Source: Candidatus Heimdallarchaeota archaeon
Lineage (GTDB): Archaea > Asgardarchaeota > Heimdallarchaeia > Heimdallarchaeales > Heimdallarchaeaceae
Length of the DNA: 7,390 nt
Reading direction: 5' to 3'
NCBI GenBank assembly: GCA_030668875.1
Contig: DAOVER010000093.1
Span: forward strand, 1 to 7,390
Numbering within the stretch: position 1 is the first letter of the stretch; each line of letters begins with the position of its first letter. Positions 707-7,390 of this stretch are shown in pieces. The position numbers and the translations under genes are program-made. The notes below the pieces were generated by a model. It did not search any database. It was not told where the DNA came from and saw only the letters and a list, made by a program, of their open reading frames with translations.

Positions 707-1867
707 ATGGGATTAACAAAAACTCCTTTATGGAAGGTATTTGAGGAAGCTGGAGCAAGAATGATAGATTTTGCAGGCTATTATCTGCCAGTTTCCTTTA
801 CTGGTATTGATGATGAAATCATGGCGACAAGAGAGAGAGTGACTCTGTGCCCTGTAACTGATATGGGTCGTTATTCCTTGAAAGGCAAATTTGCCACTAA
901 ACTTATGGAACTCCTTGTTCCCCGTGACATGTCAGCCATGGAAAATATGAAATGTGGTTATTCTTTTTATCTCAACGAACATGGTGGTTACCGTGATGAC
1001 ACTATTCTCGGTAAAAAGAGCGAAACCGACTACTTCAATGTTTGTAACGCTGGTAGTCAAACCACTAAAGTTTTAGCTTGGATCGGTCAGTTCGTTAAAA
1101 TCTTTGAAGAGATGACTGGTGAACCTCTTGAATTCAAAGACTGGACTTTAGAAACTACCATGTTTGCTGTTCAAGGTCCTAAATACAAGACTGTTTTAGA
1201 TAATCTTGGTGTACCAGATACCGGTGCTTGGCAGATGGTTGAAGCCGAAGTTGAAGGTTGTAAATGTCTATTTACTGGTACTGGTTATACTGGTGAGTCA
1301 GGCTTTGAGGTAGTTATTTTTGATTCTGATCTTGCCAATCCTGAAAAAGGCATCAAGGTTTGGAACGCTATTTTAGAAGCTGGTAAGGAAGTAGGTATTG
1401 CTCTCTGTGGTCTTGGTGCTCGAGATGCTCTAAGAATTGAAGCTGGTCTCCCCCTTTATGGTGAAGACATTCATGAAGAAGTTACCCCCGTTGAAACTGG
1501 TTATGACTTCAAAATGTTCTGTAATCACTTCAAAGAACCTTTCTACTTTGGTAAAGAAGCTCTCCAAAAAGCCAAAAATGAAGGTGTAAAAATCAAGCAT
1601 GTTGGTATCAAACTTTTAGAAAAAGGTATTCCTCGAGCTGATTATGACATTCTCACTCCTGCTGGAGAGAAAATTGGTTATATGGTTAACGGTGTCCGTT
1701 CCCCTGTCATTGGCAATGTAGGCGTTGGTATGGCTTTTGTTGACATTAAATATGATGTACCAGAAACTGAAGTTTTAGTGCAAATTCGTAAGAAGCAAGT
1801 TAAAGCTAAAGTAGTTAAACTCCCATTCTACGATCCTAAGAAGTGGGGTCGAAGAAGAGAAACTTAA
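707..1867 (+). CDS. gcvT: Glycine cleavage system T protein / aminomethyltransferase family (full length)
   Basis: Motifs: N-terminal KTPL..GARMIDFAGYYLPVSF, GGYRDDT (conserved acidic pair), AVQGP, TGYTGESGFE, GLGARDALRIEAGLPLYG, and C-terminal VQIRKKQVKAKVVKLPFY. ATG 707 (MGLTKTPL) best matches typical GcvT N-termini. In-frame GTG 689 and ATG 695 are alternative starts. Confidence 0.9.
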   Translation: MGLTKTPLWKVFEEAGARMIDFAGYYLPVSFTGIDDEIMATRERVTLCPVTDMGRYSLKGKFATKLMELLVPRDMSAMENMKCGYSFYLNEHGGYRDDTILGKKSETDYFNVCNAGSQTTKVLAWIGQFVKIFEEMTGEPLEFKDWTLETTMFAVQGPKYKTVLDNLGVPDTGAWQMVEAEVEGCKCLFTGTGYTGESGFEVVIFDSDLANPEKGIKVWNAILEAGKEVGIALCGLGARDALRIEAGLPLYGEDIHEEVTPVETGYDFKMFCNHFKEPFYFGKEALQKAKNEGVKIKHVGIKLLEKGIPRADYDILTPAGEKIGYMVNGVRSPVIGNVGVGMAFVDIKYDVPETEVLVQIRKKQVKAKVVKLPFYDPKKWGRRRET

Positions 1868-1898
1868 TTTTTTCCCCCTTTTCCTTCTTTTTATTTTA
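1868..1898 (+). terminator. Putative archaeal-type oligo-T terminator of gcvT
   Basis: Pyrimidine/T-run tract (TTTTTTCCCCCTTTTCCTTCTTTTTATTTT) directly after the TAA, conserved in the second copy at 6857-6886. Confidence 0.5.
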
Positions 1899-1927
1899 AA
1901 TTACTGTTTTTTTTAATTTTTCAACTT

Positions 1928-2203
1928 TTACTTATCAATTACATCTGCTATTCGTGATTTTAATTCTTCTATTTTATCTCTTGAAATATTTTTCAAAGTT
2001 AATTTAGGATACGCGTTTATTTGTTTTAATTCTTCATGGATTATATCCTTCAAACTAATATCATGCAACCTTATTTCTGTTAGCGAATTACATTTTGACA
2101 AATAAAAGAAGTTTTGAATCTATATTTTCTTTCCCAAAAGTGCAAGTTTCTTTAGTTTGGGGCATTTGAAATTTCTTTTAAATCCACTCTTATACCTTTA
2201 CAA
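1928..2203 (-). pseudogene. Degraded 3' remnant of a leucine-rich-repeat-like gene, copy 1
   Basis: Manual minus-strand translation: ..VDLKEIS / CPKLKKLALLGKKI*IQNFFYLSKCNSLTEIRLHDISLKDIIHEELKQINAYPKLTLKNISRDKIEELKSRIADVIDK*. Lesions are a 1-nt deletion near 2166-2168 and TAG at 2122-2120 where copy 2 has TGG. Cys-x-x-L-x-x-[LI]-x-L cores recur 24 aa apart. Confidence 0.6.
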
Positions 2204-3559
2204 TCAAAGTTTCCTCTTTTTGTAGAGAAGGAGGACTGGTATAACAATAACTGGTAGGACGACCAGACTCATAAATGCCCAGTAGGGACTTACAATGTTA
2301 ATTCTTTCCAGATTTTCATCAAGGGGATATCTATCTTCTGCTTCTGCTCTTCCATCAATTGTGTAAGAACTATTACCAGCCCAGTCAGACCAGTAGTTGC
2401 CCTTTTTAGCTTTTTTATCATACCAGATGTTATCAAATCCATCATCATAGCCTTGAGAGCTTTCACCAGGATTATTGTTAATAAAGGAGTTATAAGCAAC
2501 CAAGGTTAAATTTGTTCTTCCTTCTAAATACACTCCATATCCTTTATTTTCTTCAAGTCTGTTATAAGTTATCACACAATCTTTACTTCGTTCTAAATAA
2601 ATACCATAGAAATTATTATTAACAGCAGTATTATTTGAAATAGTATTATGCCACGACCCTGCTGTAAAGAAAATACCATAATCATTTTTTTCACAAGTGT
2701 TATTTATGGTTTTAGCAAAAAAAGACTCAATATTATAAATTCCATATCTATTCTCATAACAAGTATTATTGATAAGAGTAACATGAGAACCATGAATACC
2801 TATCCCATACATTTCATTATCTGTGCAATAATTATCTGAGATAATTCCATAAACAAGGATGCACTCTAGTCCATACTTGTTGTTTATACATTTATTATTT
2901 GAAACTTTCTTTGTCTGTGTATTCCTGATTGCCAAACCTACAATTTCATTTTCTTCACATGTATTGTTCTCAACTGTTGCATAGGAAGACAGCAATATGT
3001 CAATACCATATTTATTATTTAAAATACAAGCGTTATCAGTGATTATAGGGTCAGCTGAAAACCAAACAATGATTCCATCACCATTATTATTTGTGCAAGT
3101 GTTGTTGGTGATAGTGGAAAAATGAGCAGCATTGATGTATATTCCATATATGCTTCCTGTGCAAATATTACTTTCTATTCGTGGTTTGCTGTAAGTGGTA
3201 TTGTATACAAAAATCCCGTATCTCTCTCCTGTAACAAGACAATGTTGGATGACAAAATGCTGAGAGGTTTGTTGGACAGCAATCGCACTCTCTTGAGTAG
3301 TATTAATAAGATAATTTTCTATTCTGTAGGGATCTTCTTCCGTTCCTGTTCCTGGAAAACCATAGTCGGTGAAATTCTGGTCAGAGAGGATAATAATTGG
3401 TTCATGAACAGTGTAGGAACAATTAGTCTTTAAAGCAAAAACTGGAGGAGCATCTAATTCTAATTTTAATGAGACACTTGTAGGAGGAGAAAAAAGTAAG
3501 AATAATATGATCATCGTAATTACCAATTCTTTTTTTAAGAATGTTGATAGATTGTTCAT
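2204..3559 (-). CDS. Membrane-anchored right-handed parallel beta-helix (NosD/CASH-like) surface protein
   Basis: 451 aa. Hydrophobic N-terminal signal-like segment; HEPIII.SD..F...GFPGTGT.EDPYRIE leader; about 11 repeats of I-x-x-N-x-C-x-x-N-x-x-G-I; GNYWSD motif; C-terminal TM helix followed by KKRK. No nos genes are present, so this is a fold assignment rather than nitrous oxide reductase function. Confidence 0.85.
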   Translation of the reverse strand: MNNLSTFLKKELVITMIILFLLFSPPTSVSLKLELDAPPVFALKTNCSYTVHEPIIILSDQNFTDYGFPGTGTEEDPYRIENYLINTTQESAIAVQQTSQHFVIQHCLVTGERYGIFVYNTTYSKPRIESNICTGSIYGIYINAAHFSTITNNTCTNNNGDGIIVWFSADPIITDNACILNNKYGIDILLSSYATVENNTCEENEIVGLAIRNTQTKKVSNNKCINNKYGLECILVYGIISDNYCTDNEMYGIGIHGSHVTLINNTCYENRYGIYNIESFFAKTINNTCEKNDYGIFFTAGSWHNTISNNTAVNNNFYGIYLERSKDCVITYNRLEENKGYGVYLEGRTNLTLVAYNSFINNNPGESSQGYDDGFDNIWYDKKAKKGNYWSDWAGNSSYTIDGRAEAEDRYPLDENLERINIVSPYWAFMSLVVLPVIVIPVLLLYKKRKL

Positions 3560-6364: not shown

Positions 6365-6856
6365 GAAGCTGGTAAAGAAGTAGGTATCGCTCTTTGTGGT
6401 CTCGGTGCTCGAGATGCTCTTAGAATCGAAGCTGGTCTACCTCTTTATGGCGAAGACATTCATGAAGATGTTAACCCTGTTGAAACTGGTTACGACTTCA
6501 AAATGTTCTGTAATCATTTCAAAGAACCTTTCTACTTTGGTAAAGAAGCTCTCCAAAAAGCTAAAAACGAAGGTGTAAAAATCAAACATGTTGGTATCAA
6601 ATTGCTTGAAAAAGGTATTCCTCGAGCAGATTATGATATTCTCACTCCTGCTGGAGAAAAAATTGGTTACATGGTTAATGGTGTTCGTTCTCCTGTTATT
6701 GGTAATGTAGGTATTGGTATGGCTTATATTGACATTAAATATTCTGAACCTGAAACTGAAGTTTTAGTGCAAATTCGTAAGAATCAAGTTAAAGCTAAGG
6801 TTGTTAAACTACCCTTCTACGATCCTAAAAAATGGGGCTGGCGCAGAAAGGCTTAA
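6365..6856 (+). pseudogene. gcvT: 5'-truncated gcvT copy (last 163 codons only)
   Basis: 152/163 aa identical to the C-terminal part of the 707-1867 protein, with no internal stops or indels. It lacks the N-terminal region with the DD pair and TGYTGE motif. In-frame TTG 6344 and GTG 6359/6362 lie just outside the clear homology. Confidence 0.85.
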
Positions 6857-6886
6857 TTTTTTCACCCTTTTCCTTCTTTTGTTTTA
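6857..6886 (+). terminator. Putative oligo-T terminator, copy 2
   Basis: T/C-rich tract after the TAA, homologous to 1868-1898. Confidence 0.4.
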
Positions 6887-6916
6887 AATTACTGTCTTCC
6901 TTTGATTGTTCAACTT

Positions 6917-7189
6917 TTACTTATCAGTTACACCTGCTATTCGTGATTTTAATTCTTCTATTTTTTCTCTTGAAATATTTATCGAAGTTAATTTTTGGAC
7001 ACGCGTTTATTTTTTTCCATTCTTTGTTGCTTATATCCTTCAAACTAATACCATGCAACCTTAGTTCTGATAGCGAATTACATTTAGATAAAAAAGTTTT
7101 GAATCCAAATATTCTTTTCCAAAAGCGCAAGTTTCTTTAGTTTGGAGCATTTTGAAATTTCTTTTAAATCCACTCTTACACTTTTACAA
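6917..7189 (-). pseudogene. Degraded 3' remnant of a leucine-rich-repeat-like gene, copy 2
   Basis: Three frame segments: DCKSVRVDLKEISKCSKLKKLALLEKNIWIQNF / LSKCNSLSELRLHGISLKDISNKEWKKINACPK / LTSINISREKIEELKSRIAGVTDK*. Lesions are a 5-nt deletion near 7089-7095 and a 1-nt insertion near 6992-6996. The listed ORF 6924..7130 is the middle segment read in part. Confidence 0.6.
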
Positions 7190-7390
7190 TCAAAGTTTCC
7201 TCTTCTTGTAGAGAAGGAGGACTGGTATGACAATAACTGGTAGGACGACCAGACTCATCAATGCCCAATACGGACTCGTAGTATGAACTCGTTCCAATTG
7301 TTCTGTTAGAGGGTATTTATCCACTGCTTCTGCCTGACCTGCAATCTTGTATGATCCTTTTCCTTCATAATCTTTCCAGTAATTTCCCCT
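7190..7390 (-). CDS. C-terminal part of a second membrane-anchored beta-helix surface protein paralog (gene begins beyond the window)
   Basis: Manual translation from 7390: RGNYWKDYEGKGSYKIAGQAEAVDKYPLTEQLERVHTTSPYWALMSLVVLPVIVIPVLLLYKKRKL*. Collinear with the C-terminus of 2204..3559. Absent from the ORF track because it has no start in the window. Confidence 0.85.
   Translation of the reverse strand, partial: RGNYWKDYEGKGSYKIAGQAEAVDKYPLTEQLERVHTTSPYWALMSLVVLPVIVIPVLLLYKKRKL

Follow-up and report, generated by a model that had tools for sequence, protein, structure and literature searches.

A headless gcvT gene behind a surface-protein cassette in a Heimdallarchaeota genome: a possible scar of homology-anchored recombination between related lineages

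Homology-facilitated illegitimate recombination is a mechanism put forward for the displaced modules in effector-immunity arrays of the Vibrio cholerae type VI secretion system (T6SS; Kirchberger et al., 2017; PMC5361080), and displacement of C-terminal parts is known from Rhs proteins (Jackson et al., 2009, as cited in PMC5361080). A comparable layout was analyzed here in a 7,390-bp stretch of DNA, called the window below, which is the entire contig DAOVER010000093.1 (C77) of a Candidatus Heimdallarchaeota genome bin (GCA_030668875.1). The window carries an intact aminomethyltransferase gene (gcvT), a cassette of surface-protein genes and, behind the cassette, a headless gcvT that starts at codon 230. 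As in the T6SS and Rhs cases, a conserved stretch would act as the homologous anchor and the other end would be joined illegitimately; the new module stands in front, the old 3' part is orphaned downstream, no dedicated recombinase is known, and the cargo is fast-evolving and outward-facing. The differences are that the anchor here is a housekeeping enzyme gene and not the constant part of a toxin gene, that the orphan contains a piece of the anchor, that there is a single displacement and no string of them, and that the host is an Asgard archaeon, for which the mechanism is inferred. The locus is most likely an example, in an Asgard archaeon, of a known process, in which genes are added at a flexible hot spot by way of a homologous anchor and the end of a gene is left behind as an orphan, and it is not a new integration system or a new kind of machinery.

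Three other kinds of system come close. Flexible genomic islands, or hot spots between core genes, exchange their content by homologous recombination of their flanks. Here too, gcvT and the core genes F1-F4 on the other side of the cargo are conserved throughout the genus, and the site between them is empty in some genomes and filled by at least five cargo sets in others, but an ordinary double crossover leaves no duplicated flank, whereas this genome and a relative, G002, each carry part of the flank twice. In Campbell-type integration, a circle enters by a single crossover, as with suicide plasmids carrying a gene fragment. It yields the same topology, in which a full gene is followed by cargo and then by a headless copy, with direct repeats of the handle flanking the cargo, but in the window gcvT already becomes donor-like upstream of the segment that is duplicated. 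Integrase-type elements of Heimdallarchaeum integrate at tRNA genes (PMC8813620). Integrase islands and proviruses directed at the 3' end of a gene or tRNA, for which they bring along a replacement, also leave an intact target on one side of the cargo and a displaced 3' fragment on the other; by contrast, an integrase is absent here, and in place of a short identical core there is a 0.97-kb repeat at 88% identity, whose exact matches reach at most 44 nucleotides (nt), inside gcvT. The absence of a recombinase had been read from the letters before, and Pfam bears it out, since the only large open reading frames (ORFs) between 1868 and 6364 encode NosD/beta-helix and S8/TSP3 proteins, and no recombinase domain was present in the cargo.

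The explanation that we favor, and to which about an even chance is given, is that the headless gcvT is the scar of host recombination that added a surface-protein cassette from a related lineage, anchored on gcvT homology and closed by an illegitimate join at codon 230. With the same middling confidence, the two repeats of the window are considered to be diverged versions of one stretch of chromosome (gcvT end, intergenic DNA and the end of a convergent beta-helix gene) that stem from two related lineages and now stand in tandem. The incoming DNA, from a related Heimdall lineage, would have comprised gcvT from about codon 68 to the stop codon, the intergenic region, the genes of beta-helix protein 1 and of the S8 protease, and finally a stretch with a segment named X at its end. 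Through host homologous recombination, this DNA would have paired near position 907 with the resident gcvT; its far end would have been attached to codon 230 of that gcvT by an illegitimate join using a few bases of microhomology. The outcome would be a gcvT left intact as a hybrid gene, a new surface-protein cassette ahead of the old one, and the old gcvT 3' end and beta-helix protein 2 displaced downstream, the gcvT end as a headless relic; an element-encoded recombinase would not be required. A single event of this kind accounts for the allele switch near 907, the repeat start at 1376, the join of X to codon 230 and the missing resident sequence for 907-1375. The pattern suggests that copy 1 of the repeat was incoming and copy 2 resident, that the substrate was linear rather than circular, and that one event was enough.

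The direct repeat had been noticed, with a period of about 4,989 bp, in an earlier interpretation made from the letters alone (the sequence-only reading), and it was confirmed. Its two copies (Table 1) are 87.8% identical over 975 aligned columns at a spacing of 4,985-4,990 bp. Identity is 89.2%, without gaps, in the gcvT 3' part, 86.9% in the intergenic region (1868-2040), 87.8% in the 3' flank of the beta-helix gene (2041-2203) and 94.3% in the membrane anchor (2204-2290); beyond the anchor, in the ectodomain, it falls to 65% and 58%. The idea of the repeat as a gcvT-based handle is not supported for its right-hand third (2041-2347), which was also found at a third beta-helix gene on contig C69, with no gcvT there. 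The beta-helix family has dozens of paralogs in this genome, and the right-hand third reflects homogenisation of the anchor and 3' flank among paralogs and is not part of a gcvT handle. In the genome bin (3.23 Mb, 99 contigs, 33.8% G+C, 92% complete, 4.4% estimated contamination), tblastn found exactly two gcvT 3' units plus one 5' fragment, which does not amount to the array that had been envisaged, and each unit-specific Logan contig stood at single-copy depth.

The divergence between the two gcvT 3' ends is that of genes under purifying selection. Copy 1 and copy 2 differ by 0.042 non-synonymous (dN) and 0.462 synonymous (dS) substitutions per site, giving a dN/dS of 0.09, without any indel or stop over 489 nt; true orthologs in the genus gave a dN/dS of 0.04-0.12, the same range. 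From these data, it was estimated that neutral drift of one branch would have produced about 85 non-synonymous changes, against about 15 observed, and that copy 2 has room for neutral decay of only about 0.01, and no more than about 0.025, substitutions per site. In the tree, copy 1 grouped with the pair formed by the relatives G010 and G032 (93% support) and copy 2 fell outside (74%). Because the dN/dS is low, indels are lacking and copy 1 groups with the genes of other species, copy 2 appears to have belonged to a working gene until recently. A plain recent tandem duplication, which had been offered as the simpler alternative, is rejected by this dN/dS at a dS of 0.46 and disfavored by the grouping of copy 1 with G010 and G032. 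Between this genome and G010/G032, the flanking core genes F1-F4 are 86-92% identical; copy 2 lies within that range (88.5/89.9%) and copy 1 is closer (92.6/94.5%). By these distances, copy 2 has the appearance of the resident allele, and copy 1 that of DNA brought in from the side of G010/G032.

The full-length gcvT is a mosaic. Its codons 1-67 are unusually divergent (dS 0.57 and dN 0.12 to G010, the dS being comparable to that of copy 2, 0.47) and its codons 68-386 are G010/G032-like (dS 0.24-0.31). Nucleotide identity to G010 is 80-83% over 707-906 and 90-97% thereafter, with a jump from 80% to 91% near 907, that is, about 470 bp before the repeat begins at 1376. Sequence of the copy-2 type for gcvT 907-1375 was found nowhere in this genome. 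The first 67 codons also carry changes at positions that are invariant among the relatives compared (KVHEEAG to KVFEEAG and SIVEVTDMG to TLCPVTDMG), and their dN is about three times that of other pairs, in a gene that is otherwise intact. The region upstream of the full gcvT is of a second type, common only to G016, which is the nearest genome by flanking genes.

At the other end of the cassette, segment X abuts gcvT codon 230, whereas in G009 and G002 it lies directly 3' of the gcvT stop codon. Read directly from the sequences, the join sits in a patch of microhomology (TTTAG...TGG). Only four full copies of X were found in the genus. Rfam and tRNA scans of the window returned no matches; X is therefore no known RNA, and the window lacks a tRNA target. 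The idea that a mobile element whose right boundary is fixed ends in X was also considered and rejected, because the homology between G009 and G002 continues about 185 nt further.

The site behind gcvT is variable across the genus. The gcvT locus was recovered in 17 of the 24 genomes, with the gene order F8-F9-F13-F10-F7-gcvT-(variable)-F1-F2-F3-F4. The gap between gcvT and F1 is empty in seven genomes (G001, G007, G010, G011, G012, G017, and G032) and filled in the other ten by at least five cargo sets, mostly of anchored or secreted surface proteins: F6, an anchored propeller protein, in one to three copies; F18-F19-F6; an anchored FG-GAP/TSP3 protein (G009); an S8/TSP3 protease with an anchored ORF (G002); and beta-helix with S8. 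The comparison of relatives that the sequence-only reading had proposed thus gives the pattern it predicted, the site behind gcvT being empty in some genomes and carrying different cargo in others. Headless gcvT fragments, which also speak for that reading, recur in G002 and G032. In G002, the order is gcvT, X, S8, anchored ORF and gcvT fragment, the fragment (at least 108 nt) being 98% identical to that genome's own gene and having a different breakpoint. In G032, the ancestral site is intact, and the same junction of X with codon 230 stands on a separate contig, 94% identical over 475 nt. The gcvT fragment of G032 is only 103 nt long and is nearer to its own allele than to copy 2, an allele typing that rests on about 10 sites; it also shows changes in the conserved CGLGARD motif. 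The non-coding part of the junction is about 96% identical between this genome and G032, against about 90% for core genes. A general cassette mechanism does not follow, as the duplicated handle was seen at only two of the ten filled sites and the G032 fragment lies on a contig other than that of the empty site.

Several observations weigh against the favored explanation. A one-off illegitimate join does not predict the identical X/codon-230 junction in G032 on a G032-type allele. The donor arrangement (G010/G032-like gcvT with beta-helix 1 and S8) was not found among the genomes of the genus, and the sites of G010 and G032 are empty. Forcing copy 1 and copy 2 together in the tree costs 10.6 log-likelihood units, with a p of 0.08 in the approximately unbiased (AU) test, so that this tree is not rejected at the 5% level. 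The choice of copy 2 as the resident one depends on differences of a few percent within a region that recombines, and copy 2 is only 88.3% identical to G016, whose flanking genes are at 91-92%. Finally, the contig lacks the conserved flanks: F1-F4 stand at the end of contig C91, and F8-F10-F9 with a deleted F7 on contig C82. With the flanks on other contigs and insertion sequence (IS) elements nearby on contig C21, further rearrangement is indicated, and a single-event history may be too simple. On C82 (1361-1910), F7 (464 aa), which by eye presumably resembles a beta-eliminating lyase such as tryptophanase, is internally deleted by about 1 kb relative to G032 and surrounded by beta-helix genes, and the place expected for gcvT after F7 is taken by a beta-helix gene cut at the contig start.

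Among the alternatives, an old segmental duplication survives best, although it is regarded as unlikely. It holds that two working copies of a unit consisting of the upstream ORF (named up), gcvT and a beta-helix gene existed, and that one of them was recently broken by an IS rearrangement, after which its 5' end would stand on C21 and its 3' end in the window. At 6830-7607, C21 indeed carries a copy of up (90% identical in nucleotides and 88% in amino acids); a gcvT promoter of the ancestral type comes next, with the initial ~80 nt of the gene, which breaks off next to an rve-type IS, and contigs C77 and C21 halt at the same homologous base at up. The same pair was seen in G016, with a gcvT 5' fragment (to codon 56) behind the ancestral promoter and a full gene behind an alternative promoter. 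A low dN/dS would be expected with both copies functional, and the AU test does not reject sister copies. However, two complete gcvT genes were found in none of the 17 genomes with the locus recovered. The 5' fragment on C21 is of the G032/G010 type (94%) and copy 2 is not, the two relics being unlike halves of one gene, and the position of X against codon 230 is left unexplained by a duplication.

The integration of a circle was judged somewhat more doubtful than the duplication. This alternative supposes a circular cassette without a recombinase, with X and the gcvT 3' end as its fixed handle, that integrates by a single host-mediated Campbell-type crossover inside the handle and can spread between species and stack. 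The geometry of repeat, cargo and repeat is exactly the one required, the cargo is devoid of a recombinase, and G032, a second species, has the same X/codon-230 junction at 94% (~96% in the non-coding part against ~90% for the core) with its own type of gcvT allele attached. For these last reasons, namely the identical junction, the higher identity of its non-coding part and the attachment of each genome's own gcvT allele, a related reading was also considered, which is a shade less probable still: a small recombinase-less mobile unit with X/codon-230 as its built-in handle, moving between Heimdall species and loading surface-protein genes behind gcvT through host RadA-type recombination. The junction of a free circle would equal the chromosomal join at 6364/6365, so a circle would not be visible as such. 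Against the crossover stands the donor-like gcvT tract, which begins near 907 and not in the 0.9-kb handle where the sequence-only reading had placed the exchange. This start could be due to a separate earlier event; taken as it stands, a linear fragment with one homologous end fits it better than a crossover inside the handle. The allele switch, both here and in G032, would need to fall within the first 24 nt of the handle. Moreover, the right-hand third of the handle also stands at a beta-helix gene that has no connection with gcvT, the genome has no more than two gcvT 3' units, neither a hybrid nor an excised allele was present among the Logan contigs of four samples, and the short fragment of G032 was typed on the ~10 sites mentioned above.

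Returning to the linear, homology-anchored addition, the layout on which it is built is real DNA. Public runs containing the window sequence are marine-sediment metagenomes. Logan contigs were taken from four samples of one marine-sediment study, one of whose runs may be the source sample of the window itself. In each of the four samples, a 355-nt piece spans 6193-6547, and thus the junction 6364/6365, with no differences, and the depth of the junction contig (33, 34, 21, and 28) follows that of the cargo (about 37, 40, 22, and 28), at a ratio of about 0.8-1.05. The only repeat between the cargo and the junction, the 286-nt repeat at 5950-6235, has about twice this depth, as for two copies and not three, and a hidden chimeric switch within it is unlikely because its depth fits the two known copies. 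An assembly or binning artefact, in which the right end of the contig would come from a second, ~90% identical co-occurring strain or species and would have been joined by the assembler, is therefore very improbable: besides these contigs and depths, the X/gcvT join offers no shared sequence able to mislead an assembler, and the same junction is present in G032. In favor of an artefact are the 4.4% estimated contamination, the duplicated contig ends at 90-93% identity (C17/C59, C41/C70, and C48/C87) and the fact that both window ends parallel the ends of other contigs.

Being a complete contig, the window does not allow the extension to the right that the sequence-only reading had suggested. 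Its right end can be explained by a collapsed repeat, since over the last ~150 nt it matches the end of C69 exactly, where the third beta-helix gene stands behind an unrelated gene, and both contigs halt at the same base. Contig C82, which begins with a beta-helix gene without its C-terminus, might follow the right end of the window. No hybrid of the repeat copies and no deletion of the cargo were found among the Logan contigs of the four samples, contigs that drop rare variants. An exact scan of Joint Genome Institute (JGI) metagenome contigs for the junction gave no matches, and beta-helix protein 1 has no exact-protein match on record in public assemblies. A second scan, with a conserved intergenic word, gave one independent 1.4-kb metagenome contig (L061) with the copy-2-type arrangement of gcvT end, intergenic region and beta-helix gene, at 94%. 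This contig is too short to show whether its gcvT is complete; it starts with an inverted stretch of the beta-helix gene (1-318 vs 319-916), probably a palindromic assembly artefact. In three of the four samples, a record of low depth (3.6-7x, against ~30x) joins position 6886, 30 nt past the stop codon of the headless gcvT, through 15 extra letters to position 5002 inside the S8 gene; it may be a minor rearranged or tandem variant, or come from a relative. Elsewhere in the bin, contig-end stretches of 1.4-2.4 kb are duplicated at 90-93% identity (the three pairs named above and C58/C94), and they are either homeologous insertions like this one or the sign of a related co-binned population.

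That the headless gcvT is a working stand-alone C-terminal-barrel protein under selection, started at TTG 6344 or GTG 6359, is scarcely credible: its open frame with possible start codons and its low dN/dS would agree with this, but the fragments of G002 and G032 have other boundaries and are clearly relics, it begins in the middle of the folate-binding domain, and no orthologous stand-alone gene was seen in relatives.

The features of the window, whose gene content was assigned by Pfam, are given in Table 1. The gene order that had been proposed from the letters (intact gcvT, beta-helix, S8, headless gcvT, and a second beta-helix) is upheld by these assignments. Beta-helix protein 1 consists of a signal-like N-terminal segment, NosD/Beta_helix repeats and a C-terminal membrane anchor, and the end of the window cuts the second beta-helix gene and truncates repeat copy 2. 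The cargo of beta-helix, S8 and spacer is present as described, except that the S8 gene is frameshifted and the spacer is a patchwork and not anonymous DNA. The ATG of the S8 gene at 5891, with its signal peptide, is out of frame with the catalytic body, the shift lying between 5775 and 5799. A Logan contig of 5743-6058, which spans this position, shows no difference between the four samples. The frameshift is hence probably genuine rather than a single mistake of assembly, and the S8 gene of the cargo may be a pseudogene. The spacer of 472 nt between the S8 gene and the headless gcvT contains no ORF of at least 60 aa; after the S8 start, it is composed of the 286-nt repeat common to contig C93 and then of segment X. 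The C93 copy of this repeat is found immediately 3' of a transposase-like ORF at the end of the contig, and the copy of G032 is 96.7% identical to it. The 286-nt repeat was considered as a putative end of an IS; the adjoining transposase-like ORF is single-copy and the repeat exists in only two copies.

Table 1. Coordinates and assignments of the features of the 7,390-bp window
Feature	Position	Strand	Description
Upstream ORF (up)	3-608	+	201 aa; open at contig start; no Pfam family
Full-length gcvT (aminomethyltransferase)	689-1867	+	Pfam GCV_T 1.2e-60, GCV_T_C 1e-14; probable ATG 707
Repeat copy 1	1376-2347		gcvT codons 230-392, intergenic region, 3' flank and anchor of beta-helix gene
Beta-helix protein 1	2204-3559	-	451 aa; Pfam NosD 7e-38, Beta_helix 9e-33
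S8 subtilase with seven TSP3 repeats (calcium-binding)	3664-5891	-	Pfam Peptidase_S8 1.3e-43, TSP3_bac 1e-39
286-nt non-coding repeat within spacer	5950-6235		93% to C93 23554-23838; stops in all frames in both copies
Segment X	6250-6364	+	81% to G009, 77% to G002, 94% to contig C5 of G032
Headless gcvT	6365-6856	+	Codons 230-392; Pfam: last 51 positions of GCV_T, plus GCV_T_C
Repeat copy 2	6365-7333		Runs into contig end
Beta-helix protein 2	7190-7390	-	C-terminal 66 residues; 97% aa identity to end of contig C69

These results provide sequence-level evidence, in a Heimdall genus, for recombination between lineages that are about 10% apart, for a defined hot spot at which surface-protein genes turn over, and for joins that needed no recombinase encoded by an element. 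The low dN/dS of a headless gene copy points here to imported DNA and not to a functional gene. The interval between gcvT and F1 is usable as a marker locus for surface-protein turnover and gene flow in these populations.

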